NCBI GenBank assembly: GCA_038328565.1
Contig: JBBQMC010000001.1
Location: 4,237-68,236, forward strand
Length of the DNA stretch: 64,000 bases
Reading direction: 5' to 3'
Origin: Candidatus Limnocylindria bacterium
Lineage (GTDB): Bacteria > Chloroflexota > Limnocylindria > QHBO01
A program made the translations under genes and the position numbers. Under the pieces are notes generated by a model, which saw only the letters and a program-made list of their open reading frames with translations, made no database searches and had not been told where the DNA came from. Positions 28,994 to 48,760 of the stretch are shown here, in pieces. Position 1 is the first letter of the stretch. Each line of letters starts with the position of its first letter.

Positions 28994-29343
28994 GGGTCCG
29001 TGATCGTCCTCGTTGCGAGCTGGTCGGCCGGAGAGCGCGCGGCGCTCGAACTGCGAGTCGCGGCCGGCCGTGCCAGCCGCGGGCAGCGCCCACCGATGCC
29101 GTGTTGCGGTTCCTCGCGGATTGTACGGAGCGCACTCGCAGGGGTCAAACGTGGCGCATGATCGACGCGGCAGCGACGCCGGCACAGCGGGCGCCCGATT
29201 CCCTTGCCCCCGCCGAAACCGGGCTGCTACACTACCGCGACCCCGCGGACCGGAGGTCCTTCCGACACCGTTCCGGCCGCTCCCGCGGAGTGGTTATTCG
29301 ACCCATTTCGAGGCCCGCGTTGCGGGCGTGGAGACGGCTGTTG

Positions 29344-30684: not shown

Positions 30685-31061
30685 CGCCTCGCCGCCGGCT
30701 CGCGAGAAAGGCGCCCGGTGGTACTTCCGGCTCCGTCGAGGTGGATAACTCCGGCCTTCTCGTGGATATCTGCGCCTCCATGTGGAGAAATGCGCGCCGC
30801 AACCGTTCCGCGGTTGGGAGCGCGTCCACAGCAGGCCGTCAGTTTCCCACCCTACCACGCCGCTCCGGGCACCACCTCGTCAACACGCGAAGCGCTCTGT
30901 TTCAGGCACGAATCGGGAGGATCTCCACGCCGTCCACACGCCTACTGGGACGGCGACGGATAGGAAGTATTCTTGAAGAAGAACCATTCGTAACCGTATC
31001 GCGCAGCCGGTGGATGTGGATCCATGCTGCCGCCCTGAGCTGGAGGCATCGGTAGATCGGC
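30685..31061. other. Candidate oriC: DnaA-box cluster plus AT-rich element in the dnaA-dnaN spacer
   Basis: Eight 9-mers within 0-2 mismatches of TT(A/G/C)TCCACA, written as the box-sense sequence. TTATCCACC (30740-48, rev), ATATCCACG (30761-69, rev), TTCTCCACA (30781-89, rev), GCGTCCACA (30822-30), ATCTCCACG (30921-29), CCGTCCACA (30930-38), ACATCCACC (31009-17, rev), GGATCCACA (31015-23, rev). A 40-nt stretch at 30961-31000 is only 15/40 G+C in a ~70% GC genome. Confidence 0.65.
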
Positions 31062-32192: not shown

Positions 32193-32226
32193 CGTCGCGC
32201 CGGCCGCACCGATGAGGGCCTGACCG

Positions 32227-33791: not shown

Positions 33792-36014
33792 ATGTCCTCG
33801 CGCCTTGCCACTCGCATCGGTCTGCCCGCAGCCGAGGAACGCGCTGCCGGGGCGCTCGACGTCGCGCGCTTCCACGAGCCGACGGTCGGGGCTCGGGCGC
33901 GGACGAAGGGATCGCTCTTCCTGCTGGCCCAGGTGACCGGCAGCGATCCGTCGCTCGGCCGGGCCGCGCGCGAGGCCCTCGACGAGATCGAGCGGGACTA
34001 TTACTACGACCTGTCGGTCGGCGCCCTCGGCGCGCTCGCGAAGGCGATCGAGGCGGCGAACCGGCGGCTCTACCACCATCGCCGCAAGCTCGGGATCGGG
34101 AAGCGCGGCGGGGTCGGCGTGGTGGCGGTCGCGGTGCGCGGGCGTGAGCTCCACGTCGCGAAGCTCGGCCCGGCGAGCGCGGTCGTCGTCCGCGGCGGCC
34201 GGATGTACGAGCTGCCGCCACCCCCGGCCGTGGCCGACGAGGATCCGCGCGTCCGGCGGCGCCGGGTTGCCGGCACCCTCGGCGAGGCGCTCCAGGTCGA
34301 GCCGTACACGTGGCAGGGCGAGCTCGCCGCCGGCGACCGGATCGCGCTGGTGAGCCGCAACCTCGCCCACGTGGTGGGCGTCGATGAGCTCAAGCGCTCG
34401 CTCGACGTGATGCGCCCCGCCGCTGCCGCCGAGCACCTTCAGCAGCTGTTCGCGATCCGCGGCGGCAGCGGCTCGGACGGGTTGCTCGTCATCGAGATCG
34501 ACGAGGTGGCGGCGACGGCGACGACCCGCCAGCTCGAGCCGGTGCGGCCGGCGGAGCCGCTCGCCGGGCTTCCGGACGAGAGCCCGGTCCCGCTCGCCGA
34601 CGCGATCGGGCGCCTGCTCCACCGTGCGGGCGCGGGGATCGACGCGCTCCAGGCGGCCTCGGGGCGCGGCCTGCTGCGGCTCATCAATGTCATCCTCGCC
34701 TTCGTCCCGCACCGGCGGCCCGGCTACCCGCGCACCGTGTCGCGGACCGATGAACGCGAATCGGGGCGCCGCCGCCGGCTGGGGCTGGCCTGGATGGTCG
34801 TGGTTGCCGGTATCGCCGCCGCCGGGGTGATGGTCGGATCACTGCCGTCGGCGACGCCCACCGACGCGATCCCGCGCGCCCAGGTGGCCCGCCGGGCGAT
34901 CACCGACGCCCAGCAGCTCGTGGCCCAGGTCGAGGACGAGGTCGAGGGTCGCGACCTCGTCGCGCGTGCCCCGGAACAGGCGAAGACGCTCCTCGACGAG
35001 GCGTTCGGGGCGGTGGAGCGCGCCGCTGGCGCCGGCGTCGCGACCACCGAGCTGGAACCGCTCCGCGCACGCGTGGATCGCGGCCTCGACGCGCTCTACC
35101 ACGTCGCCCGGATCCAGGACATTGCCATCGTGGCCGACCTCGCCAGCACGCTCGAGGCGGTTCACGCCACGCGGATGGTCGCCTCCTCCGATGGCGCGCT
35201 CTGGCTCGCCGACGAGGGCCGCGGTCGCGTGATCCGCGTCGACCCCGCGGACGGATCGGCGACCGTCGTCTATCGCGCGGGCCAGGAGCTTGCCGGCGGC
35301 GTCGCCGCCGCTCCCTGGCTCATCGCCACGGCCGCCACGGACGTGGTGGTCGTCGACCGCTCACGGCAGGTGTGGCGAATCGACCTCACCGAGCTGCTGC
35401 CGCACCGCATGCCGCTCAAGGGGATCGAGGCCATCTCGGCCGACAGCCAGCTCCTGGCGGCACTCCAGCATCGGCCGCCGCTCGAGATCTTCAACCTCTA
35501 TCTCGTCGACGCGGCGAATGGCGTCATCGACAAGTGGTCCCCGCCGGCTGTCATCCCGGTGACGTTCCCCAGCGCCCCGCAGCCCTTCCTCAGCGCCGAG
35601 CCCGACATCCCGCCCCAGCGGGCGCGCGACCTGCTCGTCGACGCGAACCTGTGGCTGCTCCAGCGCAATACGGTGACGCGGGTGAACTTCGGCACGCCGC
35701 TGCCGCAGACCGACTTCTCGCTCGACCCGCCGCCGGACGCCCAGGTCCGCGACGCGGTCGACTATCGCCTCTTCGACGCAGCGACAATCGGTGAGCGGGA
35801 GCTGTTCTTCGTCTACGACGCGGCGAACGCGCGGATCGTCGGTTTCCAGCGCGCGGATGGGGCGTTCGTCGGGCAGTGGATGGCGCCGCGGGCCGGCGCG
35901 CAGAAGGACCTGCTCGCCGACGTCGTCGGCCTGCATGTGGCGTCGGTGGCCGACGGCCCGCCGGTCGCCTACCTCGCCACCCTGGACCGGGTGGTGCGCG
36001 TCGTGCTCGAGTAG
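33792..36014 (+). CDS. Membrane protein: degenerate PP2C (PstP-like) cytoplasmic domain, one TM, extracytoplasmic repeat (beta-propeller-like) domain
   Basis: 740 aa. The N-terminal ~250 aa align by eye with PPM phosphatases, but metal-binding Asp positions are replaced (ADGMGG to AQVTGS, GDS to GPA, CSDG to VSRN). TM is LGLAWMVVVAGIAAAGVMVGSL. The C-terminal part has repeated blades such as LWLADEGRGRVIRVDP, VVVVDRSRQVWRIDL and LFFVYDAANARIVGF. Confidence 0.7.
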   Translation: MSSRLATRIGLPAAEERAAGALDVARFHEPTVGARARTKGSLFLLAQVTGSDPSLGRAAREALDEIERDYYYDLSVGALGALAKAIEAANRRLYHHRRKLGIGKRGGVGVVAVAVRGRELHVAKLGPASAVVVRGGRMYELPPPPAVADEDPRVRRRRVAGTLGEALQVEPYTWQGELAAGDRIALVSRNLAHVVGVDELKRSLDVMRPAAAAEHLQQLFAIRGGSGSDGLLVIEIDEVAATATTRQLEPVRPAEPLAGLPDESPVPLADAIGRLLHRAGAGIDALQAASGRGLLRLINVILAFVPHRRPGYPRTVSRTDERESGRRRRLGLAWMVVVAGIAAAGVMVGSLPSATPTDAIPRAQVARRAITDAQQLVAQVEDEVEGRDLVARAPEQAKTLLDEAFGAVERAAGAGVATTELEPLRARVDRGLDALYHVARIQDIAIVADLASTLEAVHATRMVASSDGALWLADEGRGRVIRVDPADGSATVVYRAGQELAGGVAAAPWLIATAATDVVVVDRSRQVWRIDLTELLPHRMPLKGIEAISADSQLLAALQHRPPLEIFNLYLVDAANGVIDKWSPPAVIPVTFPSAPQPFLSAEPDIPPQRARDLLVDANLWLLQRNTVTRVNFGTPLPQTDFSLDPPPDAQVRDAVDYRLFDAATIGERELFFVYDAANARIVGFQRADGAFVGQWMAPRAGAQKDLLADVVGLHVASVADGPPVAYLATLDRVVRVVLE

Positions 36015-36625: not shown

Positions 36626-37405
36626 CTAGGTGCGGGAGCGCCTCGGCCCAAGCACCTCGCGGCGATGCAGCCAGAGGGCGATCCGCAGCTTCCCGATATC
36701 GCGGAACGTGCGGAGGATCTTCCGGAACGAGGCGCCCGTGTTCGTGCCCGCCGTCCGTGGGTAGTGGTTGACGCCGACCTGTGCGATCCGCTCGCCGCGC
36801 GCGCGGAGCTTGATCAGGAGCTCGGCCGACAGGAACGGGGAGTCGGCGTCGAGGCGCAGGCCGTCGAAGACCTCCCGTCGGAACAGCTTCATGGCGCAGT
36901 CGATGTCGCGCGCCCGCAGGCCGAAGAGGACGGACACGATGGCGTTGTACGTCTTGGCGATGAAGATCCGGTGCGCCGGATCGCGGCGCCTGATCCGGTA
37001 GCCGATCACCACGTCGACCGGCTTCTGGCGTGGGTCGTCGAGGCGGGAGATGAGACGCCCCATCTCGGTGAGGTCGAACTGGAGGTCGCCGTCGGAGAAC
37101 GAGATGAGGCGTCCGCGCGAGTTCGCGAAGCCCGTCCGCAGCGCGCCGCCGTAGCCGCGGTTCTCCTGATGGACGACGCGGACCTCGGGATGCGCAGCGG
37201 CGAGCGCGTCCGCGAGCTCGGAGGTGCGATCGGTCGAGCCGTCGTCGACGATGACGATCTCCATCGAGTCGACGAGCGGACCGATGTCGGCGAGCGCTCG
37301 TTCGACGGTGCGCTCCACGTTCTCCTCCTCGTTGAAGGCGGGGAAGAAGAAGCTGAGCTGGGGCGGATCGGTCTCGTGGGGCTCGCGCGTTGGCTCCGGG
37401 TTCAG
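36626..37405 (-). CDS. GT2 glycosyltransferase, polyprenol-phosphate sugar (Ppm1/DPM1-like) synthase; probable CTG start
   Basis: The track ORF starts at GTG 37318, which would delete the conserved first strand. The open frame upstream reads LNPEPTREPHETDPPQLSFFFPAFNEEENVERTV. Also has IVIVDDGSTDRT, ENRGYGGALRTGF and DGDLQFD. No ATG/GTG/TTG exists upstream. CTG 37405-37403 overlaps the upstream stop (CTGA) and has GAGGTG 5 nt upstream. Confidence 0.85.
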   Translation of the reverse strand: MNPEPTREPHETDPPQLSFFFPAFNEEENVERTVERALADIGPLVDSMEIVIVDDGSTDRTSELADALAAAHPEVRVVHQENRGYGGALRTGFANSRGRLISFSDGDLQFDLTEMGRLISRLDDPRQKPVDVVIGYRIRRRDPAHRIFIAKTYNAIVSVLFGLRARDIDCAMKLFRREVFDGLRLDADSPFLSAELLIKLRARGERIAQVGVNHYPRTAGTNTGASFRKILRTFRDIGKLRIALWLHRREVLGPRRSRT

Positions 37406-39021
37406 GGCAGCACCTCGACGATGTCCGTGTAGCCGCCGTACGTCTCGACCGGCCGCGTCCGGAAGACCGCCAGCAGGCGTGCCGCCTCCCAGTCCGGCGG
37501 CACGAGGTAGACGGGGCGCCGGCCGAGGTAGGCGCGAATGGCGGCGTCGATCGTACTCCAGCCATCGTCGAGGATGTTCCGCTCGTCGATGATCATGATG
37601 TCAGGGCGATCGCCGAGCACCCAGCGGTGGTACCACAGCGGCGTGCTGTAGCTCCACCAGCTGATGATCACCGCGTCCGGCGGCAGGGCTCGATACACGC
37701 TCGCGACCCACAGGTCCGCCTCGTGGTTGGCGGACTGGTCGCGCACGTCATAGCGGGTCACGAGCGCAACGACCGGCAGCAGCGCGCCGAGGAGGAGCAC
37801 GGTCGTGCCCGCGATCCGCGCCGCCGCCCGGCGGCCGGCAACGTCGAGCGTCCGCCGCGTCGCCTCTGCGATGGCGCGGCTTCCCGCCGCCGCGAGGCTG
37901 CCGACCGCCACGCCCACGAAGACGCAGGCCACGAGCGTGCTGAGCAGGTAGTAGCGGTCGATGTCCCCGTCCTGGAAGTTCATCGAGTAGAACACGTTCG
38001 AGACCATGAGCAGCACGAGGAATGCGAACGCCCCCAGGCGCTTGACGGCGAGGCTCGCGGCGCCCATCGCCACGACCAGCCAGCCCGGGCCGACGAGCTG
38101 TGCAGCGAGCACGCTCTCCGCCTTCGCCCACTTGAAGTCGATGTACTGGAGCGGGCTGCTCAGCTGGTCGAAGAGACCGTGGAACTGCTCGGCGAAGACG
38201 AGGTAGCGGAACCCCTCCCACGTTGTCGGGCGCGCGTAGAAGAGCGGCGGCTCGGGCCAGATGTGCGCCCGGATCGGGATGTAGAGGTAGACGAGGAGGC
38301 CGAGCAGCAGCAGCCCGGCGCACGCGAGGAGGAGGCGCCAGCGGCGCCAGATGCCGGGGTCGACGATGAACAGCCACGGACCGATGGCGAAGGCCATCAA
38401 CCCGGTCAGTGGATGGTTCCCCATCCCGATCCCGAACATGAGCGCAGCCACGGCCAGCCAGCGGCCGCGATGCCGCGACCCGGCCCATTCCGCGGCGCGC
38501 CACGTGACGAGCAGCCACACGATGAGCGCGGCGATGAAGATGTGGATGGCGTGGACGTCGGCGCGCAGGGCGTTCTCCCACACCTCGCCCGCGAACGCGA
38601 AGGCGGCACCCGCCACCGCCGCGGCGACGGCGGTGACCCAGCGGTTGCGCTCCTCGAGCAGGTGGGCGGTGATGAGGACCGTCAGGCCGGCCGCGAGCGC
38701 CACGCAGACCGCCGACAGCAGGTTCATGCGGTATGCGACCTCCCCGATCGGGAGCTGGCTCCACAGCCACCCCAGGAGGGCGTAGGTCGGGAAGCCGGTC
38801 GGATGGAAGATCGACAGGGTGTGCGGCACCGTCTGCGCCTCGCCGGTGTCCCAGAAGCCCGCCGCCGGCATGAGCGTGCGCAGGTAGATGGCGAAGGCGA
38901 CGAGGGTGATGAAGGCAGCCGCCCACGCCACGGGGCCGGAGACGTACGGCAGCCCGAGCCCGTGGTGTCGCGGCGCAACCGGGGGCGCCGCGGGCACGTC
39001 CGAGGCCCGATGTATACTCAC
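37402..39021 (-). CDS. DUF2723 (TMEM260-like) GT-C fold membrane glycosyltransferase
   Basis: The real gene is the C-terminal ~540 aa of the 793-aa track ORF. Has AGFWDTGEAQTVPHTLSIFHPTGFPTYALLGW (the FWDxGE and HPxGxP motifs of DUF2723), about 11 TM segments, then a soluble C-terminal domain. The start is GTG 39021 or GTG 38997. Confidence 0.8.
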   Translation of the reverse strand: MSIHRASDVPAAPPVAPRHHGLGLPYVSGPVAWAAAFITLVAFAIYLRTLMPAAGFWDTGEAQTVPHTLSIFHPTGFPTYALLGWLWSQLPIGEVAYRMNLLSAVCVALAAGLTVLITAHLLEERNRWVTAVAAAVAGAAFAFAGEVWENALRADVHAIHIFIAALIVWLLVTWRAAEWAGSRHRGRWLAVAALMFGIGMGNHPLTGLMAFAIGPWLFIVDPGIWRRWRLLLACAGLLLLGLLVYLYIPIRAHIWPEPPLFYARPTTWEGFRYLVFAEQFHGLFDQLSSPLQYIDFKWAKAESVLAAQLVGPGWLVVAMGAASLAVKRLGAFAFLVLLMVSNVFYSMNFQDGDIDRYYLLSTLVACVFVGVAVGSLAAAGSRAIAEATRRTLDVAGRRAAARIAGTTVLLLGALLPVVALVTRYDVRDQSANHEADLWVASVYRALPPDAVIISWWSYSTPLWYHRWVLGDRPDIMIIDERNILDDGWSTIDAAIRAYLGRRPVYLVPPDWEAARLLAVFRTRPVETYGGYTDIVEVLP

Positions 39022-39072
39022 CGCCGCCGTGCCGTGCCAGACTCGGCGTCGCCGTACCCGGCGACGCCTTCG

Positions 39073-42000
39073 ATGACCTCCCGTCCCATGCGGCGGCCGG
39101 ACGCGAGGCCATTCGCAGACGGCCTGCCTCTCGACCCCGGCGCGCTCCTCGGCGTCCTGATCCTCATTGGTCTGCTGCTGCGGGCCCTCATCGCTGGCAT
39201 CCTGCTGCCGACAAGCGGCTTCCGGATCGACATCGTCGACTTCGCGGCATGGGGGCAGCGACTCGCAAGTGTCGGGCCCGGCGCATTCTACGATCCGAGC
39301 GTCTTCAGCGATTATCCGCCCGGCTACCTCTACGTCCTCTGGGTCCTCGGGATCGTCGGCAAGCTGCTGTCCCCGCTGGTCGGGCAGGACGCCACCGCCG
39401 GGCTCGTGAAGATCCCCGGCATCCTCGCCGACGCGGGGGTCGCCTGGCTCCTCTTCAGCTATGGCAGGCGCTTTCTCCATCGCCGCTTCACGCTCGCCGG
39501 CAGGAGCTGGTCGGGCGGGGCGGTGGGACTGCTGGCCGCCGCCATCTACCTGTTCAACCCCGCGACGATCTTCAACAGCGCCATCTGGGGCCAGGTCGAC
39601 TCGGTGGGCACGCTCATCATCCTCGGCACCCTGTACGCGCTCGCGGCGGGCTGGACCGAAGCCGCCGCGCTCGGGGCCATCGTCGCCCTGCTCGTGAAGT
39701 TCCAGTACGCCTTCCTCATCCCGATCGTCGCTGTGGTCGGGATCCGCCGCCACCTCCTCGGCCGCTCCGCCGACCCGGCACACGATGACCAGCGTGACCC
39801 GCTGCGGGTGCTGACCTCACTCGCGGTGGGCGTCGGCGCGCTCGTGCTCCTGCTCGCCCCGTTCGGGATGACGGTGTGGTCGCCGAATCCGGATCCGAAC
39901 GTCAGCCTGATCGGCAAGTTCGGCCAGGCGGCGACGACGTACGAGGGGCTCGCGATCAACGCCATCAACCTGTGGCGCAACGCATGGAGCGGGCTCGGCG
40001 ACACGCTCCAGTGGGGCTGCGACGTGCCGGCCGTGCCGCCCGACCTGGGCTGCGGGGGACCCGGCATCGCGATCGCGGCTGGCGGCTTGGCCGTCTCATG
40101 GCAGCTGCTCGGAACGCTGCTCTTCGCCGCGGCCGCCCTGGTCGCCATCTGGCAGGTCTGGCGCCATGACGAGCCGGAGGGCATCCTCCTCGGCTCGTTG
40201 CTCGTGGCGGTCGCGTTCTTCGTGCTGCCGACCCGCGTCCACGAGCGCTACCTCTTCCCGGCCATCGCGCTCGGCGCGCTCCTCGTCCTGCGGGCGGCGC
40301 CGCGGCTGGCGCTGACCGGCACGCTCCTGGCGGTCGGGGCGGCGGTGGCCGTCGCCATCGGCCTCGACGTCGTGCCAGGCTTCCGCCTCGTCGGCGACGG
40401 CACCTGGCCCGCCTGGTTCCTCCTCATCTTCCCGCTGGCGGCCGCCGCCGTCGCCCTGCTGCTCGTCCGCTACGGGTGGGCCGCCCTGTTCGGCCTGCTC
40501 ACGCTCTCGCTGACCGCGAACGCGCTGTGGGTCTACACCGCCGACTGGTCGTTCGCCGGCGATCCGCCCATGAATCCGGGCTTCGGCGGCGGCGCCATGG
40601 ACCTCGGCCCGTTCTTCGACGACGTGATCTGGACCGATGCCGCCCTCTACCTGCTCGGGATCTCCATCGTCGTCGCATTCGGCTGGCTCGCGGTCCGGGT
40701 AGCGCGGGCCGCCCTGGCCCCGGCAGCCACGCGGGCGATCGAGCTCAGCGCGCCCGTCGCCGCAATGCCATCTCCTGCTGCCATGCCGCCCCTCCCGGAG
40801 GTCGCCATCACGAACGCCCGCGAGGAGGACCCGCTCTACCGAGAGCCGCGCCGTCGCCTCGATCGGCTCGACGCGCTCCTCCTCGTCGGGCTCGTCGTCT
40901 TCGGCCTCCTCTTCCGCCTCTGGCGCCTCGACGTCCCGCAGGCCTACCACTTCGACGAGGTCTACCACGCCCGCTCCGCGATGGAGTGGCTGTCCGACTG
41001 GGAGCACGGCTGGACCCGGGACACCTACGAATGGACACACCCGATGCTCGCGAAATACCTCATCGCGGCCGGGATCGTGGCCATGGACCCGAACAACGTG
41101 CGCGACACGACGGACGTCGCCAGCCCGGGACCGGCGATCGCGGTCGCTCCCGCCAGGAGCTTCGAGCAGCACCCGCGCTCGGTGACGTTCACCGTGGAGG
41201 GTGGCCAGATCGTGGCCCGCGATGCGCTCGACGGAACCGAGCTCAGCCGATGGTCCGCGGGAGGCGCGATCGCGTCGCTCGCGTGGGACATGACGGTCCA
41301 GCGCCTCCTCGCCGGCCGCGCCGAGGGCGGCATGGTCCAGGCGTACGACCTTGCCGGCTACCTCACAGAGAGCGGGCCGCGCGCTCCGCCGCCGGCAGGG
41401 GCGACCTGGGCGACCACGCTGGGCAGCGTCGACCAGCTCGTCGTGTCCGATGACGGGGCCACGATCCTCAGTCGCGGGCCGGATCGCATCGCGCGGCTCG
41501 ATCCGGCGGGGACGACGATCAGCGCCAGCGTCGAGTTGACGACCGGGGGCCTCGCCTATCTCCCGAAGGTCGAGACCACCGCGGCGTACGTGCTCGCGAC
41601 CGACGTGCGCGCCGGCGCGGTGAACGTCCTCGACCCCGCCACCCTTCAGCCCGCGGCAAGCAGGGAACCGCTCCAGCCGAACTCGACGCCGGTCGGACCG
41701 ATCCTGGTCCAGGGTTCCGGCGCCGACATGCAGATCTGGGTCCCGGTAGGGCCACAGCCCGGTGACCCGGGCGCCTTCCCGGCCACCGGCGGCGGGATCG
41801 CGGTGTTCGGCCATTCGTTCAGCCTCATTGGGACGACCCCGCTCCCCGGCGCGCCGCGCCAGATCGCCTGGGAGCCGGTGGTCAACATGGTCTACGTCAC
41901 CGGCGTCACCGATGACGGCGCGTCGCCGGTCCTGTGGGCCGTGGAGCCGCACGGCGAGTCCGGCAACGCCGGCCAGCTGCGCTCGGGCTTCTCGGTCTGG

Positions 42001-43905
42001 GACAGCACCGCCCTTCCCGGGGAGCCGCTGGCGATCGCGGTCGACGCGGTCGACACCGGCACGACCGATGACGACGCCCAGATCGTCGTCGTCACCGCGC
42101 CCGCCGCTGGCGGCACGACCGGAGCGCTCGTTGGCGTCGACACCCGCGAGGACGCGATCGCGTGGCGCATGGCCGGCGTCGTCTTCGGCGCCATCCTCGT
42201 CGGGCTCATCTACCTCCTGGGGGCCACGATGTTCCGCCGCCGGCGCATCGCGGTCCTCGCCGCGATCTTCGTTGCGGTCGACGGCATGAGCTACGTCATG
42301 AGCCGGATCGCGATGAACGACATCTTCACCGCGACCTTCATCGTCGCCGCGTACCTCCTGTTCTGGCAGGTGTGGTCGGGCCGATGGAGGGGCAGCGCAT
42401 GGTGGGCGCTGCCGCTCAGCGGCGTCCTGATCGGTCTCGCCGCGGCGAGCAAGTGGGTCGGCTTCTACGCGCTCGCCGGACTGCTCATCCTCGTCCTGGT
42501 GCGGTCGCCACTCGGGCGGCTGCTGCTCGTCGGCGCGATCGGCTTCCTGCTGGTCGTGACCGGCATCGACGCGCCGTGGCCGTTCCTCGTCGTGTGCGCC
42601 GCAGTCTTCGCGATCGCGATGGTCATCGTCTGGCGCTGGCCGATCCGGCTGCGCGGCGAGGAGCTGCTGGCACTGCCGGCGACCGGCCTCGCGCTGGGAG
42701 GCATCGGTCTGGCCTTCGCGATCGCCTACGGGCAGGTGGCCGGCAGGCAGCCGAAGGACGCGGTCGAGACGGTGTTCGCATTCCTGGCGCGCGGGGCGCA
42801 GGCGTCATGGCCGGCCTGGATCATGCTCGCCGTCGCGGCCATCCTCATCCTTGCGCGCGCCGCCTGGTCGCTCCGCGCCCGGAACGACGTCCGCTGGTGG
42901 GCCCCGGAAGAGCTTGGCGGCTTCTCGTGGCCGTGGGTCGGCGCGTGCCTCGTCATCGTGCCGCTCGCCGTCTACTTCCTCGCCTACGTGCCGTACCTGG
43001 CGCTCGGCCACACGATCGCGATCCCGAACGTCGGGCCCGGCTACGCGTGGTCGCTCGACGAGCTCCATGCCCAGATGTTCGGCTACCACTTCGGGCTCAC
43101 CGCCGGACATCCGTCGAGCTCGCCATGGTGGAGCTGGGCGCTCGACCTCAAACCCACCTGGTTCTACGGCCACAGCTACGACGACCGCACCACGGCGGCG
43201 ATCTACAACGGCGGCAACCCGATCCTCTTCTGGGCCGGCATCCCGGCCCTCGTCTTCGCCGGAATCATGGCCTGGCGCCGTCGCTCGCTGGCGCTGGTGC
43301 TCGTCGTCGTCGCGTTCGCCTTCCAGTTCCTGCCCTGGACCCGGATCGAGCGCGCGACGTTCATGTACCACTACTTCACCGCGGTCCTGTTCGCGATGGT
43401 GGCGCTCGCCTACGCCGTCGACGAGCTCCTCGTCCGCCCCGACTGGCGGCCGTATGGCATCGCCTTCCTCAGCCTGGCGGCGGTGGCCGGCATCCTCGTC
43501 TTCCCGCTGGGATCGGCGCTCGCAATGCCGGACTGGTACATCAATGCGGCCCGGGCGCTACCGCCGTGGAACTACGCCTTCCAGTTCCCCGGACCGCCAT
43601 CCGGCTCGCGCGCGCAGCTCGTCAGCAGCAACCTGCCGAAGCTCCTGGCGGGCCTGGCGGTCGGATTCGTGGCCGCCGTGTTCGCCCTGCTCGGACGGGA
43701 CACCTGGGAGAGCGAGCGCGTCCGGCGCGCCTCAGCGGCGGCGGGAGAAGGAGGCGACGACGATGACGAGGCCGGCGACCAGCAGCCCGACGGGCCAGAC
43801 GCGCGACCACGGGATCGCGGGGAGGTACTGGGCGGCGAGCGCCCAGGCCCCGACGACGATGAGGATGCCGCCGACGATCAAGGCGCCGCTCCCCGGTTCG
43901 AGTGA
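39073..43905 (+). CDS. Giant fusion glycosyltransferase: N-terminal GT-C module + PMT/GT39-type module carrying a ~355-aa inserted soluble domain
   Basis: Part of the 2171-aa track ORF; its first ~560 codons are antisense to the DUF2723 gene and are rejected. Module 1 has RIDIVDFAAW, DYPPGYLYVLW and VHERYLFP. Module 2 has FDEVYHARSAMEW, WTHPMLAKYLIA, SRIAMNDIF and ATFMYHYFTAVLF. Possible starts are ATG 39010, 39073 or 39088. Confidence 0.8.
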   Translation: MTSRPMRRPDARPFADGLPLDPGALLGVLILIGLLLRALIAGILLPTSGFRIDIVDFAAWGQRLASVGPGAFYDPSVFSDYPPGYLYVLWVLGIVGKLLSPLVGQDATAGLVKIPGILADAGVAWLLFSYGRRFLHRRFTLAGRSWSGGAVGLLAAAIYLFNPATIFNSAIWGQVDSVGTLIILGTLYALAAGWTEAAALGAIVALLVKFQYAFLIPIVAVVGIRRHLLGRSADPAHDDQRDPLRVLTSLAVGVGALVLLLAPFGMTVWSPNPDPNVSLIGKFGQAATTYEGLAINAINLWRNAWSGLGDTLQWGCDVPAVPPDLGCGGPGIAIAAGGLAVSWQLLGTLLFAAAALVAIWQVWRHDEPEGILLGSLLVAVAFFVLPTRVHERYLFPAIALGALLVLRAAPRLALTGTLLAVGAAVAVAIGLDVVPGFRLVGDGTWPAWFLLIFPLAAAAVALLLVRYGWAALFGLLTLSLTANALWVYTADWSFAGDPPMNPGFGGGAMDLGPFFDDVIWTDAALYLLGISIVVAFGWLAVRVARAALAPAATRAIELSAPVAAMPSPAAMPPLPEVAITNAREEDPLYREPRRRLDRLDALLLVGLVVFGLLFRLWRLDVPQAYHFDEVYHARSAMEWLSDWEHGWTRDTYEWTHPMLAKYLIAAGIVAMDPNNVRDTTDVASPGPAIAVAPARSFEQHPRSVTFTVEGGQIVARDALDGTELSRWSAGGAIASLAWDMTVQRLLAGRAEGGMVQAYDLAGYLTESGPRAPPPAGATWATTLGSVDQLVVSDDGATILSRGPDRIARLDPAGTTISASVELTTGGLAYLPKVETTAAYVLATDVRAGAVNVLDPATLQPAASREPLQPNSTPVGPILVQGSGADMQIWVPVGPQPGDPGAFPATGGGIAVFGHSFSLIGTTPLPGAPRQIAWEPVVNMVYVTGVTDDGASPVLWAVEPHGESGNAGQLRSGFSVWDSTALPGEPLAIAVDAVDTGTTDDDAQIVVVTAPAAGGTTGALVGVDTREDAIAWRMAGVVFGAILVGLIYLLGATMFRRRRIAVLAAIFVAVDGMSYVMSRIAMNDIFTATFIVAAYLLFWQVWSGRWRGSAWWALPLSGVLIGLAAASKWVGFYALAGLLILVLVRSPLGRLLLVGAIGFLLVVTGIDAPWPFLVVCAAVFAIAMVIVWRWPIRLRGEELLALPATGLALGGIGLAFAIAYGQVAGRQPKDAVETVFAFLARGAQASWPAWIMLAVAAILILARAAWSLRARNDVRWWAPEELGGFSWPWVGACLVIVPLAVYFLAYVPYLALGHTIAIPNVGPGYAWSLDELHAQMFGYHFGLTAGHPSSSPWWSWALDLKPTWFYGHSYDDRTTAAIYNGGNPILFWAGIPALVFAGIMAWRRRSLALVLVVVAFAFQFLPWTRIERATFMYHYFTAVLFAMVALAYAVDELLVRPDWRPYGIAFLSLAAVAGILVFPLGSALAMPDWYINAARALPPWNYAFQFPGPPSGSRAQLVSSNLPKLLAGLAVGFVAAVFALLGRDTWESERVRRASAAAGEGGDDDDEAGDQQPDGPDARPRDRGEVLGGERPGPDDDEDAADDQGAAPRFE

Positions 43906-44480: not shown

Positions 44481-44617
44481 GATGCCCCAGTGGCGTCGCC
44501 GGAGCCGTGGTCCCTCCCGGGATCACGGCTCGTTCTGCGTCCGGGACGGACGAGCCACGAGGCCACCAGCAACCGATGACTGACCCGGCGGACGACGACG
44601 ACGATAAGGAGCACCGG

Positions 44618-45535
44618 ATGACCGGCGTGCTTGAACAGATGAATAGCGCACCGCAGCAGCGGCCCGCCTCGATGGCGGCCACCCAGCGGCGCCCGCGGCT
44701 TCAGCCGATCGTCGAGGGCGGGGTGCCGGCCCTTCTCGCGGACCACGTCACGAAGCGATTCGTGGTGGGCCGGAAGAAGAAGCCCGTCATCGCGGTCAAC
44801 GACGTGAGCCTGCGCATCCCGCGCGGCGAGATCTACGGGATCCTCGGCGCCAACGGGAGCGGGAAGTCGACGCTCATCCGGCTCGTCAGCACCCTGCTAA
44901 CGCTCGACGCCGGGCGGGTGGAGGTCTTCGGCCACGACATCGAGCGCGACGAGATGGCCGTCAAGCGCGTCATCAACCGGGTGAGCGTGGACGCGGCCTT
45001 CTTCAAGAAGCTGTCGCCCCACGAGAACCTGACCTACGCGGCCCGTCTCTACGGGATGGACGCCGGTCAGGCGAAGCGCGACGCGATCGAGATCCTGGCG
45101 CGCCTCGGCATCGGCGAGAAGCGGCTCAACCGGCCGCTCGAGCAGATGAGCCGTGGAATGCAGCAGAAGGTCGCCATCGCGCGGGCGCTGCTGACGAGCC
45201 CAACGCTCCTCCTGCTGGACGAGCCGACCACAGGCCTCGACCCGCGCTCGAAGCTGGACGTCCAGTCGTTCATCGAGGAGCTGCGGGACACGCATGACGC
45301 GACGATCGTGCTCACGACGCACGACCTCGACGAGGCGGAGCGGCTCTGCGATCGGCTCGCGATCATCAACGACGGCCGGCTCGTGGTGGAGGACACCGCG
45401 GACGGCCTCAAGGCCATGGTGGCCGAGCGGTTTGGCCTGCCGGCGACCCTGGAGAGCGTCTTCATGAAGTACACCGGCAAGTCGCTCGACGACGACATCG
45501 GTGACGACGACAAGGACGACGACAGCGACGAATGA
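44618..45535 (+). CDS. ABC transporter ATP-binding protein (DrrA/ABC-2 exporter type) with poly-Asp tail
   Basis: ATG 44618 is preceded by AAGGAG. Has GANGSGKSTL, MSRGMQQKVAIARAL and LLLLDEPTTGLD. The tail is DDDIGDDDKDDDSDE. Confidence 0.9.
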   Translation: MTGVLEQMNSAPQQRPASMAATQRRPRLQPIVEGGVPALLADHVTKRFVVGRKKKPVIAVNDVSLRIPRGEIYGILGANGSGKSTLIRLVSTLLTLDAGRVEVFGHDIERDEMAVKRVINRVSVDAAFFKKLSPHENLTYAARLYGMDAGQAKRDAIEILARLGIGEKRLNRPLEQMSRGMQQKVAIARALLTSPTLLLLDEPTTGLDPRSKLDVQSFIEELRDTHDATIVLTTHDLDEAERLCDRLAIINDGRLVVEDTADGLKAMVAERFGLPATLESVFMKYTGKSLDDDIGDDDKDDDSDE

Positions 45536-45759
45536 GACAGAAAGGAGGTGAGAACACCGTGCTGAACAGCCTGCCGATGCCGCAGGACCTCGTGAGCGTC
45601 AATGACGCGCACGTGGCGCAGCTGCGCCACGAGATCCGGGCCCGACGCAACCATCGGCCCGAACGCCGCCCCGTGCGGCGCTGGGTCGGTCGCCTGCTGG
45701 TCCGAATGGGCCAGCGCCTGGCGGCGGAGCCCGGTTTCCGGCCGGCCCGGTCCCTCTAG
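45532..45759 (+). CDS. Hypothetical Arg-rich micro-protein encoded between the ABC ATPase and permease genes
   Basis: Either ATG 45532 (ATGA overlap with the ATPase stop, 75 aa) or GTG 45559 (66 aa), which is preceded by AAAGGAGGTGA. GC3 is very high throughout. No TM segment and no recognisable domain. Confidence 0.45.
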   Translation: MRQKGGENTVLNSLPMPQDLVSVNDAHVAQLRHEIRARRNHRPERRPVRRWVGRLLVRMGQRLAAEPGFRPARSL

Positions 45760-45808
45760 TCGAGGGACTCGGGTCGGCACATCCGCCTCCCGACAGGAGT
45801 CCACTGAC

Positions 45809-46609
45809 ATGTCCCTGATGACCCGCGAGCTGAAGGCGTCGTACGCCTTCGTCGAGCGGAACTTCAATCTCACCCGGCGCTACTGGGCCTGGGAGGTCGC
45901 GTTCCTCGTCTACGCCGTGGCCGGCGCGCTCGCCGTGTCGCTCATCGGCAAGGACCAGGGCGATGACCGCCTGCTCCTGACGCTCGTCATCGGTGCCGTC
46001 TTCTGGAACTACCTGTCGGTCGTCTTCAGCTTCATCGCCGAAACGGTCGCCTGGGAACGCTGGGAAGGGACCCTGGAGTACACCTTCATGGCCCCCGTGC
46101 GCCGCTACGCGCAGATGGTCGGCTCGACGCTCTACGCGATTGCGTACGGGTTCGTCCACACCGTGGTCGTGCTCGCGGTGCTCGCCCTGTTCTTCGAGCT
46201 CGACCTCGCGCATGCGAATTTCGTGACCGCGGCGGTGTTCATGGTGCTCGGGTCCCTCTCGTTCATCGGGATCGGGATCATGACCGCCATCCTGCCGCTC
46301 ATGTACGTGGAGCGCGGGGCACAGATGACGTTCGTCCTGCAGTCGGTGCTGCTGCTCATCAGCGGCGTCTACTACAGCGTCGACATCCTCCCCGGATGGA
46401 TGCAGGTGCTGAGCCACTTCAGCCCTGCGACCTACGTCCTCGACGGCGTGCGCGCCGGCCTCATCGACGGGACGCCGATCACGGCGCTCGTCGGCGACGT
46501 CTGGCCGCTCGTGGTGATGGGCGCGGTCTTCATCCCACTGGGGATCTGGGCCTTCGGTCGCGCCGAGCGCTACGCGAAGCGGACCGGCAAGCTGAAGCGC
46601 GTCGGATGA
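45809..46609 (+). CDS. ABC-2 type transporter permease
   Basis: ATG 45809 gives MSLMTRELKASYAFVERNFNLTRRYWAWEVAFLVY. 266 aa and 6 TM, the typical ABC-2 (DrrB-like) pattern. Confidence 0.85.
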   Translation: MSLMTRELKASYAFVERNFNLTRRYWAWEVAFLVYAVAGALAVSLIGKDQGDDRLLLTLVIGAVFWNYLSVVFSFIAETVAWERWEGTLEYTFMAPVRRYAQMVGSTLYAIAYGFVHTVVVLAVLALFFELDLAHANFVTAAVFMVLGSLSFIGIGIMTAILPLMYVERGAQMTFVLQSVLLLISGVYYSVDILPGWMQVLSHFSPATYVLDGVRAGLIDGTPITALVGDVWPLVVMGAVFIPLGIWAFGRAERYAKRTGKLKRVG

Positions 46610-46724: not shown

Positions 46725-47753
46725 ATGACCACCTCTACCACGAGCCGCCTCGACCCGCCGGTCGTGCCCGGCCTCACCCTCCGCGTCCACGACGGGACGA
46801 CCGGAGTCGCCGCGCAGATGGCGCCGATCGCGCTGGCCGCGAATCGCGCCGATGGCGTGCAGTCCCACGTCGACGAGAGCGAGCTTGCGAACTGGCTCGA
46901 CTATGCAGGCGACCACTTCGACCCGGCGCGCGACATCGTGCTGGCCGAGCTCGACGGCACGCTCGTCGGCTATGCGTGGGTCGAGTGGGTCGACACGACC
47001 GAGGGCATGCGCGAGTTCCGGCTCGGCGGGTACGTGCACCCTGACCAGACCGGCCGCGGCATCGGCCGCAACCTGCTCGCCTGGCAGGAGGCGCATGCCG
47101 CCACGCTCCCCGCTGCCCTGGACGCCACCACGACCCTGGGCTACGGCAGCTGGTCGCCGGAGGAGCGCGCCGCGAAGCGGCACCTCTTCGAGCGCGCCGG
47201 CTACGAGGTGGCGCGCTACTTCTTCGAGATGCGGCGTAGGAATCTCGACGCCGTCGACGTGCCGCCCATGCCCGCGGGGCTCGAGATCCGGCCCATCGGT
47301 CATGATCGGACCAGCCAGAAGCAACTGTGGGACGCCGATGTGGAGGCGTTCCGCGGCGACCACTGGGGCGGCTTCGACGACTCCGACGCGAACTTCGATC
47401 GTTCGATGGCCGATCCTGACCACGACCCGGACCTGTTCGTCATCGCCTGGGACGGTGACGAGATCGCCGGTGGCGTGACGAACGCGATCTGGAAGGCCGA
47501 CAACGAGGCGTTCAACCGCCGTCGCGGCTGGCTCGAGACGGTCTTCGTCCGTCGTCCCTGGCGTCGCCGTGGCCTCGGCGCGGCGATCGTGGCGCGGTCG
47601 CTCGTCCGCCTCCGCGAGGCGGGCATGGACGAGGCGATGCTCGGCGTCGACAGCGGCAACCCGAACGGCGCGCTCGGCCTCTACGAGCGGGCCGGCTTCG
47701 TCGTCCATACGCGGTCGTACGCCCTGCGCCGCCCGTTCGAGGTGATGCGATGA
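46725..47753 (+). CDS. Two-domain GNAT N-acetyltransferase, MshD (mycothiol synthase)-like, paralog 1
   Basis: 342 aa. The C-terminal GNAT has VFVRRPWRRRGLGAAIVARSL (acetyl-CoA loop) and NPNGALGLYERAGF. Confidence 0.85.
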   Translation: MTTSTTSRLDPPVVPGLTLRVHDGTTGVAAQMAPIALAANRADGVQSHVDESELANWLDYAGDHFDPARDIVLAELDGTLVGYAWVEWVDTTEGMREFRLGGYVHPDQTGRGIGRNLLAWQEAHAATLPAALDATTTLGYGSWSPEERAAKRHLFERAGYEVARYFFEMRRRNLDAVDVPPMPAGLEIRPIGHDRTSQKQLWDADVEAFRGDHWGGFDDSDANFDRSMADPDHDPDLFVIAWDGDEIAGGVTNAIWKADNEAFNRRRGWLETVFVRRPWRRRGLGAAIVARSLVRLREAGMDEAMLGVDSGNPNGALGLYERAGFVVHTRSYALRRPFEVMR

Positions 47754-48760
47754 CCGTTTCGACGCTCACCATCCGCCCCTACGCCGGTGAGGCGGACCTG
47801 CCGCGCCTGGTGGCCATCTTCAACGCGGTCGCGGAGGCCGACGGGTTGCACGACCGCCGCTCGGTGGAGCAGCTGGCGGCCTGGTACGCGACCCCGACCG
47901 CGCACCTCGACCCGGGCCGCGACATTCTGGTCGCGGAGGAGGACGGTCGTCCCATCGGCTACGGCCGCCACAGCTGGGTCGACACGACCGATGGGCTGCG
48001 GGAGCACCGCGTCTTCGTGTTCGCGGTTCCCGACCGGCGCGACGCACTCGAGCCGCTGATGAACGCGCTCGAGGCCCGGGTTGCGGAGGCCGCCGCGGAG
48101 CAGGACGCCGCTGGCCCGGACGGCGCGGCGGGCCGGCGTCGCGTGCTCGGTACGTTCGTGCCAGACACCCAGGCCTGGCGGAAGGACGCGTTCACGCGCC
48201 GCGGCTACGCGCCGGTGCGGTGGGGCTTCGAGATGGTGCGCCCGAACCTGGACGCGATCGAGGTGCCGCCACTGCCCGACGGGCTCGAGCTGCGACCGGT
48301 GGAGGGTCGTGCGGGGCTGCGCCGGCTGTGGGACGCCGATGTCGAGGCATTCCGCGACCACTGGGGCGGCTTCGACGACTCCGACGAGGCCTTCGAGGCG
48401 TGGCTCGCCGAGCCGGACCTCGACCCGAGCCTGTGCGTCGTGGCCTGGGACGGCGACGAGATCGCCGGCGCCGTGATCAACGCCATCAACGCCCACGAGA
48501 ACGGGCTCATCGGCCAGCAGCGCGGCTGGCTGGATTCGGTCTTCGTCCGGCGCCCGTGGCGGCGGCGCGGGCTGGCGGCCGCGCTCGTGGCGCGCTCACT
48601 CGTCCTGCTCCGGGAGCGTGGCCTGGACAGCGCCGTCCTGGGCGTCGACGCCGAGAACCCGACCGGCGCCCTGGGGGTCTACGAGCGCGCCGGCTTCGCG
48701 GTCGTCTCGCGCGACGTCAACCTCCGACGCCCGTGGCCGCCGGAAGGCATGGACCGATGA
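47750..48760 (+). CDS. Two-domain GNAT N-acetyltransferase, MshD-like, paralog 2
   Basis: 336 aa, collinear with paralog 1 (roughly half to 60% identical by eye). ATGA overlap with paralog 1. Confidence 0.85.
   Translation: MTVSTLTIRPYAGEADLPRLVAIFNAVAEADGLHDRRSVEQLAAWYATPTAHLDPGRDILVAEEDGRPIGYGRHSWVDTTDGLREHRVFVFAVPDRRDALEPLMNALEARVAEAAAEQDAAGPDGAAGRRRVLGTFVPDTQAWRKDAFTRRGYAPVRWGFEMVRPNLDAIEVPPLPDGLELRPVEGRAGLRRLWDADVEAFRDHWGGFDDSDEAFEAWLAEPDLDPSLCVVAWDGDEIAGAVINAINAHENGLIGQQRGWLDSVFVRRPWRRRGLAAALVARSLVLLRERGLDSAVLGVDAENPTGALGVYERAGFAVVSRDVNLRRPWPPEGMDR

Follow-up and report, generated by a model that had tools for sequence, protein, structure and literature searches.

A conserved Limnocylindria protein fusing a GT-C module to a PMT module with an inserted beta-propeller

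The fusion gene and its locus

The window (the whole stretch of DNA that was analysed, 64,000 nucleotides) originates from a soil Chloroflexota bacterium of the class Limnocylindria, an abundant, uncultured soil and freshwater lineage. It encodes a large membrane protein in which a GT-C module, a linker and a PMT module with a propeller insert follow each other in this order, an overall architecture that we regard as almost certain. The features of the locus are the following, with amino acid (aa) positions referring to the fusion protein:

36626 to 37405, minus strand: GT2 gene of the ArnC/DPMS/GtrB type (Pfam Glycos_transf_2, E-value 2e-24; PDB matches)
37402 to approximately 39021, minus strand: TMEM260-like (DUF2723) GT-C gene, divergent to the fusion gene (Pfam E-value 5e-31)
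39073 to 43905, plus strand: whole fusion gene, encoding a 1,610-aa polytopic membrane protein (continuous high GC3, full-length homologues, single ORF in 55 related loci)
39073 to 40716, plus strand: N-terminal GT-C module, aa 1-548 (Pfam PIG-U, family profile, Foldseek; pLDDT mostly 85-97)
39223 to 39252, plus strand: RIDIVDFAAW motif, aa 51-60, with D53 and D56 where the first juxtamembrane helix begins behind TM1
40309 to 40482, plus strand: lineage-specific two-TM insertion in the N-terminal module, aa 413-470 (two hydrophobic helices; column occupancy approximately 20% among 120 homologues)
40717 to 40854, plus strand: Pro/Ala-rich linker, aa 549-594 (pLDDT below 50, low conservation, variable length and occupancy)
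40855 to 41097, plus strand: TM1 of the PMT module and beginning of extracytoplasmic loop 1, aa 595-675 (DE motif, HPMLAK helix)
41098 to 42141, plus strand: seven-bladed beta-propeller, aa 676-1023 (approximately 29 strands in the AF2 model, pLDDT mostly above 90; Foldseek propeller matches)
42142 to 43032, plus strand: PMT core TM region, aa 1024-1320 (Pfam PMT, phmmer match to yeast Pmt1 6p25_A, Foldseek match to Pmt4 9i5k)
43033 to 43542, plus strand: PMT_4TMC region, aa 1321-1490 (PF16192 at aa 1330-1477, E-value 2.4e-17)
43543 to 43902, plus strand: additional C-terminal TM helix followed by a disordered, acidic tail, aa 1491-1610 (from the model; low conservation)

The frame that contains the fusion gene is open from 37390 to 43905 (2,171 codons), and the original prediction of a frame open at least from 39073 to 43905 and coding for about 1,600 aa was thereby borne out (1,610 codons). 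The frame remains open upstream of 39073 because its part from 37390 to approximately 39000 is the antisense shadow of the minus-strand TMEM260-like gene, across which GC3 is high in a different frame. An ATG at 39010 was dropped as start codon in favour of the ATG at 39073 (MTSRPMRRPDARP...), since the N-termini of the homologues align to MTSRP..., with M1 and T2 at least 90% conserved in the homologue alignment; the stop codon is located at 43903-43905. GC3 of the fusion frame ranged from 0.87 to 0.96 in each 300-nt segment between approximately 39190 and 43690 and was 0.90 in the segment spanning the module junction (40690-40990). Orthologous fusions were found in number: at least 120 clusters (90% identity) of 1,480-1,650-aa proteins could be aligned over their full length at 50-91% identity, and a single ORF of at least 1,471 codons covering both modules was present in 55 of the 80 related genome loci, the 55 belonging to species-representative genomes that are almost all Limnocylindria. 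The ORF is thus not a product of chance or assembly, and 39073-43905 is one real, continuous gene.

That two adjacent genes were merged near 40800 through faulty assembly or base calling is exceedingly improbable, and for 39073-43905 this is essentially refuted. Such a merger could draw on one syntenic long-read contig (L081), on which the N-terminal module (493 aa) and the PMT module (1,134 aa) are separate and the break falls in the linker. On this contig, however, the second frame reaches back without a stop for 46 nt into the first ORF, so that one indel would join both, and PMT genes are visibly shattered in sister contigs from the same sample series (L084) and from a separate NCBI assembly (L086); the split was therefore not counted as evidence of a natural unfused arrangement. 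Six broken MFD copies, all from one long-read MAG series, have scattered break positions inside the modules, none at the junction, and other broken genes lie alongside them. Continuity of GC3 over the junction and the single ORF in 55 independent assemblies, none of which contains a stop or frameshift that splits it, likewise speak against a merger. Contig L087 was rejected as a split fusion because it carries a standalone paralogue followed by another fusion, and P0149 and P0404 were rejected as unfused arrangements, as each of them is a standalone paralogue from an unrelated locus.

Within Limnocylindria the fusion belongs to the core genes and is located near the origin, with the fixed synteny dnaA-dnaN-recF-x-nuclease-GT2(-)-[TMEM260(-)]-fusion, and it also occurs in one Actinomycetota MAG. 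Some of the homologues carry the JGI label "PMT / Gpi18-like mannosyltransferase". The TMEM260-like gene is the immediate neighbour of the fusion gene and was found at the same position in 36 related loci. Downstream of it, the GT2 gene was found in divergent orientation to the fusion at each of the 57 loci whose flanks were long enough (72-91% identity); its best PDB matches were ArnC (E-value 9e-18), DPMS (7.5e-11) and GtrB (1e-9), and by similarity it is probably a polyprenyl-phosphate-sugar synthase making the donor. An ABC-2 exporter is also among the neighbouring genes.

The N-terminal GT-C module

Two complete GT-C modules had been proposed for this protein, and profile and structure searches detected each of them independently, by PMT and PMT_4TMC in the C-terminal part and by PIG-U in the N-terminal part. 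All 36 matches of the two-module AlphaFold model (pLDDT 79, pTM only 0.64) with a probability of at least 0.9 were GT-C proteins, the matched structures being ALG6, Pmt4, AglB, PIG-U, PimE, ALG3, GPI-mannosyltransferase I and ArnT. The seven motifs quoted in the original prediction are all present. The count of two parts was nevertheless incomplete, as the beta-propeller had been missed.

The N-terminal module belongs to a family without a dedicated Pfam or NCBIfam model, and neither it nor its standalone paralogues had an NCBIfam match. It has approximately 14 predicted TM helices compared with approximately 12 in most homologues; the two inserted helices are an even number and therefore preserve its topology. 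Its sole Pfam match was PIG-U (PF06728; 33-35 bits against a gathering threshold of 24.5), which covered aa 82-257 only and points to partial kinship at the level of the fold rather than to functional membership of that family. Weak Pfam matches among 30 members of the module family were to Alg6_Alg8 (13/30), PIG-U (11/30) and GT87 (6/30, the best with an E-value of 2e-7). For GT87 (PF09594) the window protein had no match at an E-value of 1e-2 or below, and a precomputed match was present for 3 of the 120 full-length homologues listed. Used alone as a sequence query against the PDB the module gave no match even at an E-value of 10, whereas the family profile retrieved GPI mannosyltransferase 1 (E-value 3.5e-5). 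Foldseek matched its fold to ALG6, PIG-U, PimE, ALG3 and GPI-MT-I; the match to PimE (9dm5) had an E-value of 1.6e-3 and a TM-score of 0.54 in what is a comparison of folds rather than a residue-level structural alignment.

Conservation of putative active-site residues was assessed in 65 close homologues, in the standalone paralogues and in 18 fusion lineages only 30-45% identical, which included the Actinomycetota MAG and versions without the insert. In the model the first juxtamembrane helix starts at aa 51, and D53 and D56 are candidate catalytic aspartates. D53 and W60 were invariant in the 65 fusions, in 30 sequences including standalone paralogues and in the 18 divergent lineages; D56, whose position agrees with the D55/D58/Y62 spacing of PimE, is not kept in the standalone paralogues. 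The conserved residues comprise D53, D120, Q174/D176, K209/Q211 and H390-E391-R392-Y393, the last group lying in VHERYLFP (aa 389-396), and a further motif quoted in the original prediction, DYPPGYLYVLW, is at aa 80-90. Among them the invariant D53, D120, D176, K209 and H390/R392 are residues of active-site type. PimE carries its catalytic Asp, D58, at the JM1 tip and uses K195 and H322 for the phosphate (PMC12041525); the invariant residues of the N-terminal module are of the same types (Asp, Lys, His) and are located at outward-facing helix ends. With tblastn identities of 56-66%, compared with 53-58% for the PMT module, the N-terminal module is at least as conserved as its partner.

PIG-U is a non-catalytic GT-C-fold subunit of GPI transamidase, and this best Pfam match of the query module is one reason to consider that the module could be a non-catalytic pseudo-glycosyltransferase, which would stabilise the PMT module or recruit the acceptor while only the PMT module transfers sugar. 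The mycobacterial GT87-like partner of Pmt, which is reported to lack catalytic residues and yet to be needed for Pmt function (bioRxiv 10.64898/2026.07.15.738315), is a further argument for this possibility, and non-catalytic roles of this kind have been put forward for Rv0051 and, in the Pmt1-Pmt2 structure, for Pmt2. We nevertheless consider it unlikely, while giving it appreciable weight. Fusions and standalone paralogues at 30-45% identity share without exception the first-loop Asp, D120, WGQVD, KPQ and TRVHERY, as would be expected if the GT-C were an active enzyme (compare PimE D58, K195 and H322; PMC12041525), and the standalone paralogues occur in sugar-nucleotide/polysaccharide gene clusters without PMT, so that the family appears to have an enzyme life of its own.

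The linker, the PMT module and the inserted propeller

The linker, which is presumably cytoplasmic, ends in a conserved REPxRRLDRLD motif, and nine K/R residues lie ahead of TM1 of the PMT module. The DE motif (D628-E629, nt 40954-40959) is in loop 1 just after TM1, within FDEVYHARSAMEW (aa 627-639), and is followed by WTHPMLAKYLIA (aa 654-665); SRIAMNDIF (aa 1077-1085) and ATFMYHYF (aa 1428-1435) are located further downstream. F-D-E-V-Y-H and T-H-P-x-L-A-K were invariant in 65 sequences and conserved in 16 of the 18 divergent fusions, the form of the former across homologues being FDE(V/I)YH.

The propeller shares loop 1 of the PMT module with the DE motif, since the TM helix following it is homologous to TM2 of Pmt1 (alignment to Pmt1 residues 137-248) and is itself followed by RRRR. 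It had no Pfam match even at an E-value of 10, and its Foldseek matches were WD40, YVTN and BamB propellers with TM-scores of up to 0.80. Loop 1 contains 44 D/E compared with 20 K/R residues, and we place the propeller on the extracytoplasmic side. Its approximately 350 aa account for the size of the PMT module (approximately 950 rather than 500 aa) and, by splitting the domain, for the restriction of the Pfam PMT match (PF02366; 51 bits against a cut-off of 22.7, aa 1028-1144) to profile positions 82-199. PMT_4TMC (PF16192) scored 63.5 bits against a cut-off of 32.4. The extra C-terminal helix corresponds to residues 952-988 of the C-terminal module, beyond which pLDDT is below 50. No Pfam match to a MIR domain was found in the fusion protein, whose only large soluble domain is the propeller.

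The PMT module scored 40 bits against the NCBIfam Pmt equivalog model NF058602 (cut-off 800) and is, judged from its sequence, a distant family member and not an orthologue of characterised Pmt. This distance leaves some room for a pathway of envelope glycans, in which the PMT-like module, perhaps both modules, would glycosylate a non-protein acceptor (an envelope glycolipid or polysaccharide) and the propeller would bind the polymer. Relatives in the GT39 clan, ArnT and PMT_2, act on lipids, and the polysaccharide-type clusters of the standalone paralogues and the neighbouring ABC-2 exporter could be read in the same way. We consider this quite unlikely given the specific PMT and PMT_4TMC matches, the intact DE and HPxLAK motifs and Pmt4 and Pmt1 as the closest GT39-type structures; the ABC genes, moreover, lie 0.6-5 kb downstream at a distance that varies between loci. 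The neighbouring TMEM260-like gene also argues for protein acceptors, as this family is reported to be one of protein O-mannosyltransferases in animals (PMC10214176).

It is very unlikely that the two GT-C modules act independently on unrelated substrates and are fused only for co-expression in equal amounts. The long, disordered and poorly conserved linker and the modest pTM of the two-module model would be compatible with such independence, but the same pairing recurs in the same order in deeply divergent lineages, the mycobacterial counterparts co-purify (bioRxiv 10.64898/2026.07.15.738315), and partners that stay fused for so long usually belong to one pathway or complex.

Putative function and comparison with known systems

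Bacterial protein O-mannosylation has long been held to need one small Pmt enzyme. We favour, with some reservation, the reading of the fusion as a single-chain, three-part glycosylation machine at the outer face of the cytoplasmic membrane, whose likeliest function would be to O-glycosylate proteins outside the membrane, its two GT-C modules performing initiation and extension. On the cytoplasmic side, the GT2 enzyme would charge polyprenyl phosphate with a hexose, mannose being the probable one; once the lipid-linked sugar has been flipped, the PMT module would pass the hexose on to Ser/Thr residues of exported proteins. These would be selected or presented by the propeller in the loop of the DE motif, and the propeller would thereby stand in for the eukaryotic MIR domain and for Rv3212, the separate propeller of mycobacteria. 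The N-terminal module would be held beside the PMT module as the covalent equivalent of a Pmt1-Pmt2 or Pmt-Rv0051 pair, and because all of its active-site-type residues are kept it would most likely add a further sugar, in an extension step like that of GT87 PimE in mycobacteria, rather than be a mere scaffold. The parts of this proposal differ in strength: activity of the PMT module on proteins is likely, catalytic activity of the second GT-C module on the same acceptors falls slightly short of an even chance, and the full scheme, in which both sites are functional and the fused N-terminal module extends the O-glycans that the PMT module starts on propeller-held proteins, is tentative and rather doubtful.

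If the full scheme were true, two GT-C subunits paired beneath a beta-rich cap would be the general and ancient working unit of protein O-mannosylation, with yeast Pmt1-Pmt2/MIR and mycobacterial Pmt/Rv0051/Rv3212 alongside, and Limnocylindria would keep a single-chain version whose partner is still an enzyme. The fusion offers a first point of access to the envelope glycosylation of Limnocylindria and a single-polypeptide target for structure determination, and its enzyme-like second GT-C module could reveal the former role of the degenerate mycobacterial partner.

The tandem had been suspected to be undescribed. Only one report on tandem or fused GT-C enzymes was found in the literature, a preprint of July 2026 that mentions in one sentence a translational fusion of Paenibacillus GT39 enzymes with an enzyme of the GT87 family (UniProt V9WAU2; bioRxiv 10.64898/2026.07.15.738315). 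The principle of a PMT fused to a second GT-C is thus not wholly undescribed, and it is the three-in-one form with a catalytically intact-looking second module that is new. The Paenibacillus protein resembles the fusion in the covalent joining of a PMT-type to a second GT-C, a likeness drawn from that one-sentence description only, and differs in belonging to another phylum (Bacillota).

In the Pmt1-Pmt2 and Pmt4 dimers (6P25, 9I5K, 9E61) the GT39 fold, the loop-1 DE motif, PMT_4TMC and the pairing of GT-C subunits are shared with the fusion, and a beta-rich luminal domain caps the active site, a part that the propeller would play in the fusion. The partner is a GT39 paralogue in the dimers, whereas here it is a covalently paired GT-C of the ALG6/PIG-U/GT87 type, and the cap is a MIR beta-trefoil in the TM7-TM8 loop instead of the putative propeller cap in loop 1. 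The original prediction of a tandem mimicking the Pmt1-Pmt2 dimer is plausible by analogy. The N-terminal module has its fold in common with PimE (GT87, 9DM5), ALG6 (6SNH), GPI-MT-I (9WNO) and ALG3 (9S6R) at Foldseek TM-scores of 0.54-0.63 on the target, and resembles these enzymes in residue types, with an Asp at the start of JM1 and outward-facing Lys and His; at the sequence level the resemblance is marginal and divided among several families (Pfam E-values 1e-8 to 1e-2). PimE itself extends O-mannose chains in mycobacteria (PMC12757957). Animal TMTC1-4 and TMEM260 likewise combine a GT-C enzyme with a covalent repeat domain presumed to select acceptors, but have one GT-C module and a C-terminal TPR, in contrast to the inserted propeller and second GT-C of the fusion. 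The loop-1 propeller would join MIR, TPR and carbohydrate-binding modules as acceptor-binding attachments on GT-C enzymes.

The mycobacterial complex comprises Pmt (Rv1002c), GT87-like Rv0051, the beta-propeller Rv3212 and DivIVA-like Rv1209; Pmt co-purifies with the Rv0051 and Rv3212 homologues, and the argument for a multi-protein machine rests on interaction predictions and this pull-down (bioRxiv 10.64898/2026.07.15.738315). Both systems combine a GT39 enzyme, a second GT-C and a propeller that is extracytoplasmic, presumably so in the fusion, and both would depend on a polyprenyl-phosphate sugar; the propeller is near the DE active site in the complex and in the DE-motif loop in the fusion. 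The mycobacterial parts are separate, interacting proteins, whereas three of those four kinds of part are found here in one polypeptide, likened by kind of part rather than by sequence homology to Rv0051 or Rv3212. The mycobacterial propeller has eight blades and is a separate anchored protein, that of the fusion has seven and is inserted into PMT loop 1; Rv0051 is reported without catalytic residues, whereas the second GT-C of the fusion keeps residues of active-site type. A fusion of the same three kinds of part across a whole class of another phylum would provide independent "Rosetta-stone" support for the proposed mycobacterial machine.

Reading frame and conservation of the fusion gene

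The frame of the fusion gene is open over 37390-43905 (2,171 codons). Since the G+C content of the whole window is about 70%, an open frame by itself is weak evidence for a gene, and the ORF at 39073-43905 was judged to be one because of its codon-position signal and its homology. Within the first 1.6 kb of the open frame the high GC3 belongs to another frame, and a minus-strand gene from 37402 to about 39021 has a TMEM260-like Pfam match (E-value 5e-31); this part is the antisense shadow of the TMEM260-like gene and is non-coding on the plus strand. In the frame of the ORF, GC3 is 0.87-0.96 in all 300-nt windows from about 39190 to about 43690, including the proposed junction. The N-termini of homologs line up with MTSRPMRRPDARP, and at least 90% of them keep M1 and T2, which points to ATG 39073 as the start codon of a product of 1,610 aa.

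The single continuous ORF of the original prediction was confirmed by the high GC3 across the junction and by its relatives. A search of 5.8 billion proteins recovered at least 120 clusters of full-length homologs (1,480-1,650 aa), which aligned end to end at 50-91% identity and, where named, belonged to Chloroflexota/Candidatus Limnocylindria MAGs. A scan of species-representative genomes yielded 80 loci; 55 of them have both modules in a single ORF, 1,471 codons or longer, and most of the remaining loci are truncated at contig ends. The six broken copies all come from MAGs named MFD..., which we take to be Nanopore assemblies. The 55 intact loci show no stop or frameshift splitting the ORF; in the six broken copies the breaks are scattered inside the modules with none at the junction, and the adjoining genes are likewise fragmented. 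Given the full-length clusters, the intact loci and the position of these breaks, it is very unlikely that the long ORF is an artefact.

The search for orthologous fusions suggested in the original prediction returned many, including a sister group (1,640-1,950 aa) with the parts in the same order, likewise from Limnocylindria/Limnocylindrales, and one fusion (1,214 aa) from an Actinomycetota MAG. In two representatives (961 and 1,073 aa) both GT-C modules are present and the large insert is missing. Among the relatives examined, no locus was securely shown to carry the N and PMT modules as separate adjacent genes. On the syntenic long-read contig L081 (8001-13041) gene calling separates the N module (493 aa) from the PMT module (1,134 aa), and the frame of the latter stays open for 46 nt upstream, reaching into the ORF of the former; the gene may be truly split there, or the assembly may contain a one-base indel.

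Architecture of the membrane modules and the propeller

Parts of the fusion protein (gene on the plus strand)
aa 1-548, plus: N module, partial Pfam PIG-U match (33-35 bits)
aa 413-470 (window 40309-40482), plus: two-TM-helix insertion in the N module, in only about 20% of homologs
aa 549-594, plus: linker with pLDDT below 50 and an Arg-rich end
aa 595 to about 1545, plus: PMT module, Pfam PMT and PMT_4TMC
aa 676-1023, plus: beta-propeller of 348 residues, from a second model and fold matches

Every motif quoted in the original prediction was found at its given position, and both proposed GT-C modules were recovered. Because of a size limit, an AlphaFold2 model of the two membrane modules was built with the propeller excised (mean pLDDT 79); it matched GT-C structures only (ALG6, Pmt4, AglB, PIG-U, PimE, ALG3, GPI-MT-I, ArnT, and Emb proteins). 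With the N module alone as query, 3,209 relatives were found among 1.84 billion representatives. Among them are many standalone proteins (440-560 aa); of the best 150, about 30 are long and carry the module N-terminally. Family members matched Alg6_Alg8 (13 of 30), PIG-U (11 of 30), GT87 (6 of 30), and PMT_2 (5 of 30) weakly, and the family profile matched GPI mannosyltransferase 1 in the PDB (E-value 3.5e-5). Because of this spread and the PDB match, the N module represents a GT-C family without a model of its own, and it cannot be assigned with confidence to GT87, GT57, or PIG-U.

Fourteen TM helices were counted in the N module from the model helices and the hydropathy profile. The number is even with or without the aa 413-470 insertion, whose two helices leave the topology unchanged, so that the Arg-rich linker end is predicted to be cytoplasmic and PMT TM1 to enter the membrane in the canonical direction.

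The PMT module carries the features of the Pfam-level GT39 definition (PMT, PMT_4TMC, and the DE motif) and falls outside the Pmt equivalog. Its TM1 is followed by the DE helix (F627-D628-E629), the HPMLAK helix, and a 348-residue all-beta domain; the remainder is matched by Pfam PMT and PMT_4TMC, and at its C-terminus the protein has one additional TM helix followed by an acidic tail. The all-beta domain had no match in Pfam. In the second model, which includes it (pLDDT 83, pTM 0.86), it has about 29 strands, mostly with pLDDT above 90, and its fold matches BamB and, with TM up to 0.80, seven-bladed propellers of the WD40 and YVTN types. The following TM helix aligns to yeast Pmt1 residues 137-248 and is succeeded by RRRR, and the propeller-bearing loop is acidic (44 D/E vs. 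20 K/R). Homology and the positive-inside rule therefore place the propeller, putatively, in extracytoplasmic loop 1, which also holds the catalytic DE motif. The MIR domain of eukaryotic PMTs is absent from the fusion protein.

Among 65 close homologs the invariant residues of the PMT module include D628, E629, H632, and many more. Those of the N module include D53, D120, Q174, K209, Q211, and T387-R388-V389-H390-E391-R392-Y393, and D176 is shared by at least 90% of these homologs. The N-module residues stay invariant or at least 90% conserved when standalone paralogs (29-38% identity) are added, and they are also kept in 18 divergent fusion lineages. Overall, conservation of the N module (56-66%) is no lower than that of the PMT module (53-58%). 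In PimE the catalytic base D58 lies at the tip of JM1 and the phosphate is held by K195 and H322 (PMC12041525). The N module has conserved Asp, Lys, and His of the same types at outward-facing positions in the predicted topology, D53 lying at the start of the first juxtamembrane helix in the model, and these may be equivalent to the PimE residues.

Genomic context and paralogs

Neighboring genes in the window
29290-33396, plus: dnaA, dnaN, and recF in a row
33792-36014, plus: 740-aa protein, conserved in all related loci, where recF and the nuclease-domain gene flank it
36626-37405, minus: GT2, matching ArnC (E-value 9e-18), archaeal dolichol-phosphate mannose synthase (7.5e-11), and GtrB (1e-9)
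44576-46609: ABC-2 exporter pair, upstream of the GNAT genes
46725-48760, plus: two adjacent GNAT acetyltransferase genes, the first with two GNAT-matched stretches

The dnaA, dnaN, and recF genes are consecutive, so the window probably includes the region around the chromosomal origin of replication. About 6 kb separate recF from the fusion gene in all relatives, and the order is fixed: dnaA, dnaN, recF, the 740-aa protein, a bifunctional-nuclease-domain protein, the minus-strand GT2 (often with the TMEM260-like GT-C), and the fusion, with ABC-2 transporter and then GNAT genes downstream. This downstream block is kept in most relatives. The 740-aa protein had no match in Pfam; a repeat within it (aa 463-506) has a match to designer 'Pizza' propellers (E-value 1e-8), which derive from an NHL-repeat (PknD-type) propeller.

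All 57 loci whose upstream sequence is long enough carry GT2, oriented divergently from the fusion (72-91% identity); the TMEM260-like gene is present in 36 loci. No ATG, GTG, or TTG lies upstream of the conserved N-terminal strand of GT2, LSFFFPAFNEE, and an in-frame CTG (37405-37403) overlaps the TGA stop of the TMEM260-like gene (37404-37402; CTGA), which suggests a CTG start or translational coupling. In the known pairs ArnC/ArnT, GtrB/GtrC, and Ppm1/Pmt a polyprenyl-phosphate-sugar synthase accompanies a lipid-sugar-dependent transferase; by analogy, GT2 beside such putative transferases is the layout expected of an extracytoplasmic glycosylation pathway.

Standalone N-module paralogs were found in Limnocylindria and other Chloroflexota as well as in one actinobacterial and one Planctomycetota MAG, some within sugar-nucleotide/polysaccharide clusters or tandem arrays. 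At L087 (7001-10722) a standalone paralog (497 aa) overlaps the start of another N-module-PMT fusion by 4 nt, the standalone copy having 37% and the fused copy 31% identity to the N module of the window; this cluster also holds PIG-V-like (Mannosyl_trans2) and TMEM260-like GT-Cs and a GT2. L082 (7001-13831) is a cluster of three N-module-like GT-C paralogs (481, 470, and 471 aa) with no PMT gene nearby, and at L085 a paralog lies amid dTDP-sugar, epimerase, methyltransferase, and GT2 genes. At L084 (3001-5487, minus strand) TMEM260_N and GT2 domains were called as one 828-aa protein, possibly another fusion; the neighboring PMT gene of that contig is visibly frameshifted.

Proposed function and comparison with known systems

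From this architecture and conservation we infer as most likely a three-step mechanism, in which GT2 would supply polyprenyl-phosphate-hexose, the PMT module would start O-glycosylation of exported proteins presented by the propeller, and the tethered N module would add a further sugar. In mycobacteria the GT87 enzyme PimE lengthens O-mannose chains (review, PMC12757957). As a second alternative the acceptor would be a non-protein molecule, and it is unlikely that the two modules act independently of each other.

For GT-C enzymes in fused or tandem form, our literature search yielded a single relevant source (bioRxiv 10.64898/2026.07.15.738315). There, mycobacterial Pmt co-purifies with three proteins that it is also predicted to bind: Rv0051 (GT87-like, without catalytic residues), Rv3212 (an eight-bladed periplasmic propeller above the active site), and Rv1209 (DivIVA-like), an arrangement likened to Pmt1-Pmt2 with MIR domains. 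It also reports Paenibacillus GT39 enzymes fused to a GT87-family enzyme, so that the hetero-tandem, which the original prediction held to be undescribed, has a precedent, whereas the three-part single-chain variant is new. The three-part fusion is real and conserved, and a novel form of a kind only lately recognized.

By analogy, the Limnocylindria fusion is predicted to work like a Pmt/Rv0051/Rv3212-type machine; it would lend independent support to a multi-component PMT machine and offer a tractable single-chain version of it. The main rival to a sugar-adding N module is that it serves as a scaffold, as proposed for Rv0051. Rv0051 is reported to lack catalytic residues, whereas the Limnocylindria partner looks catalytically intact, and its being possibly a working enzyme is of interest in itself. 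The mycobacterial complex consists of separate proteins with Rv3212 as its propeller, whereas in Limnocylindria the three parts form one chain and the propeller is inserted in PMT loop 1.
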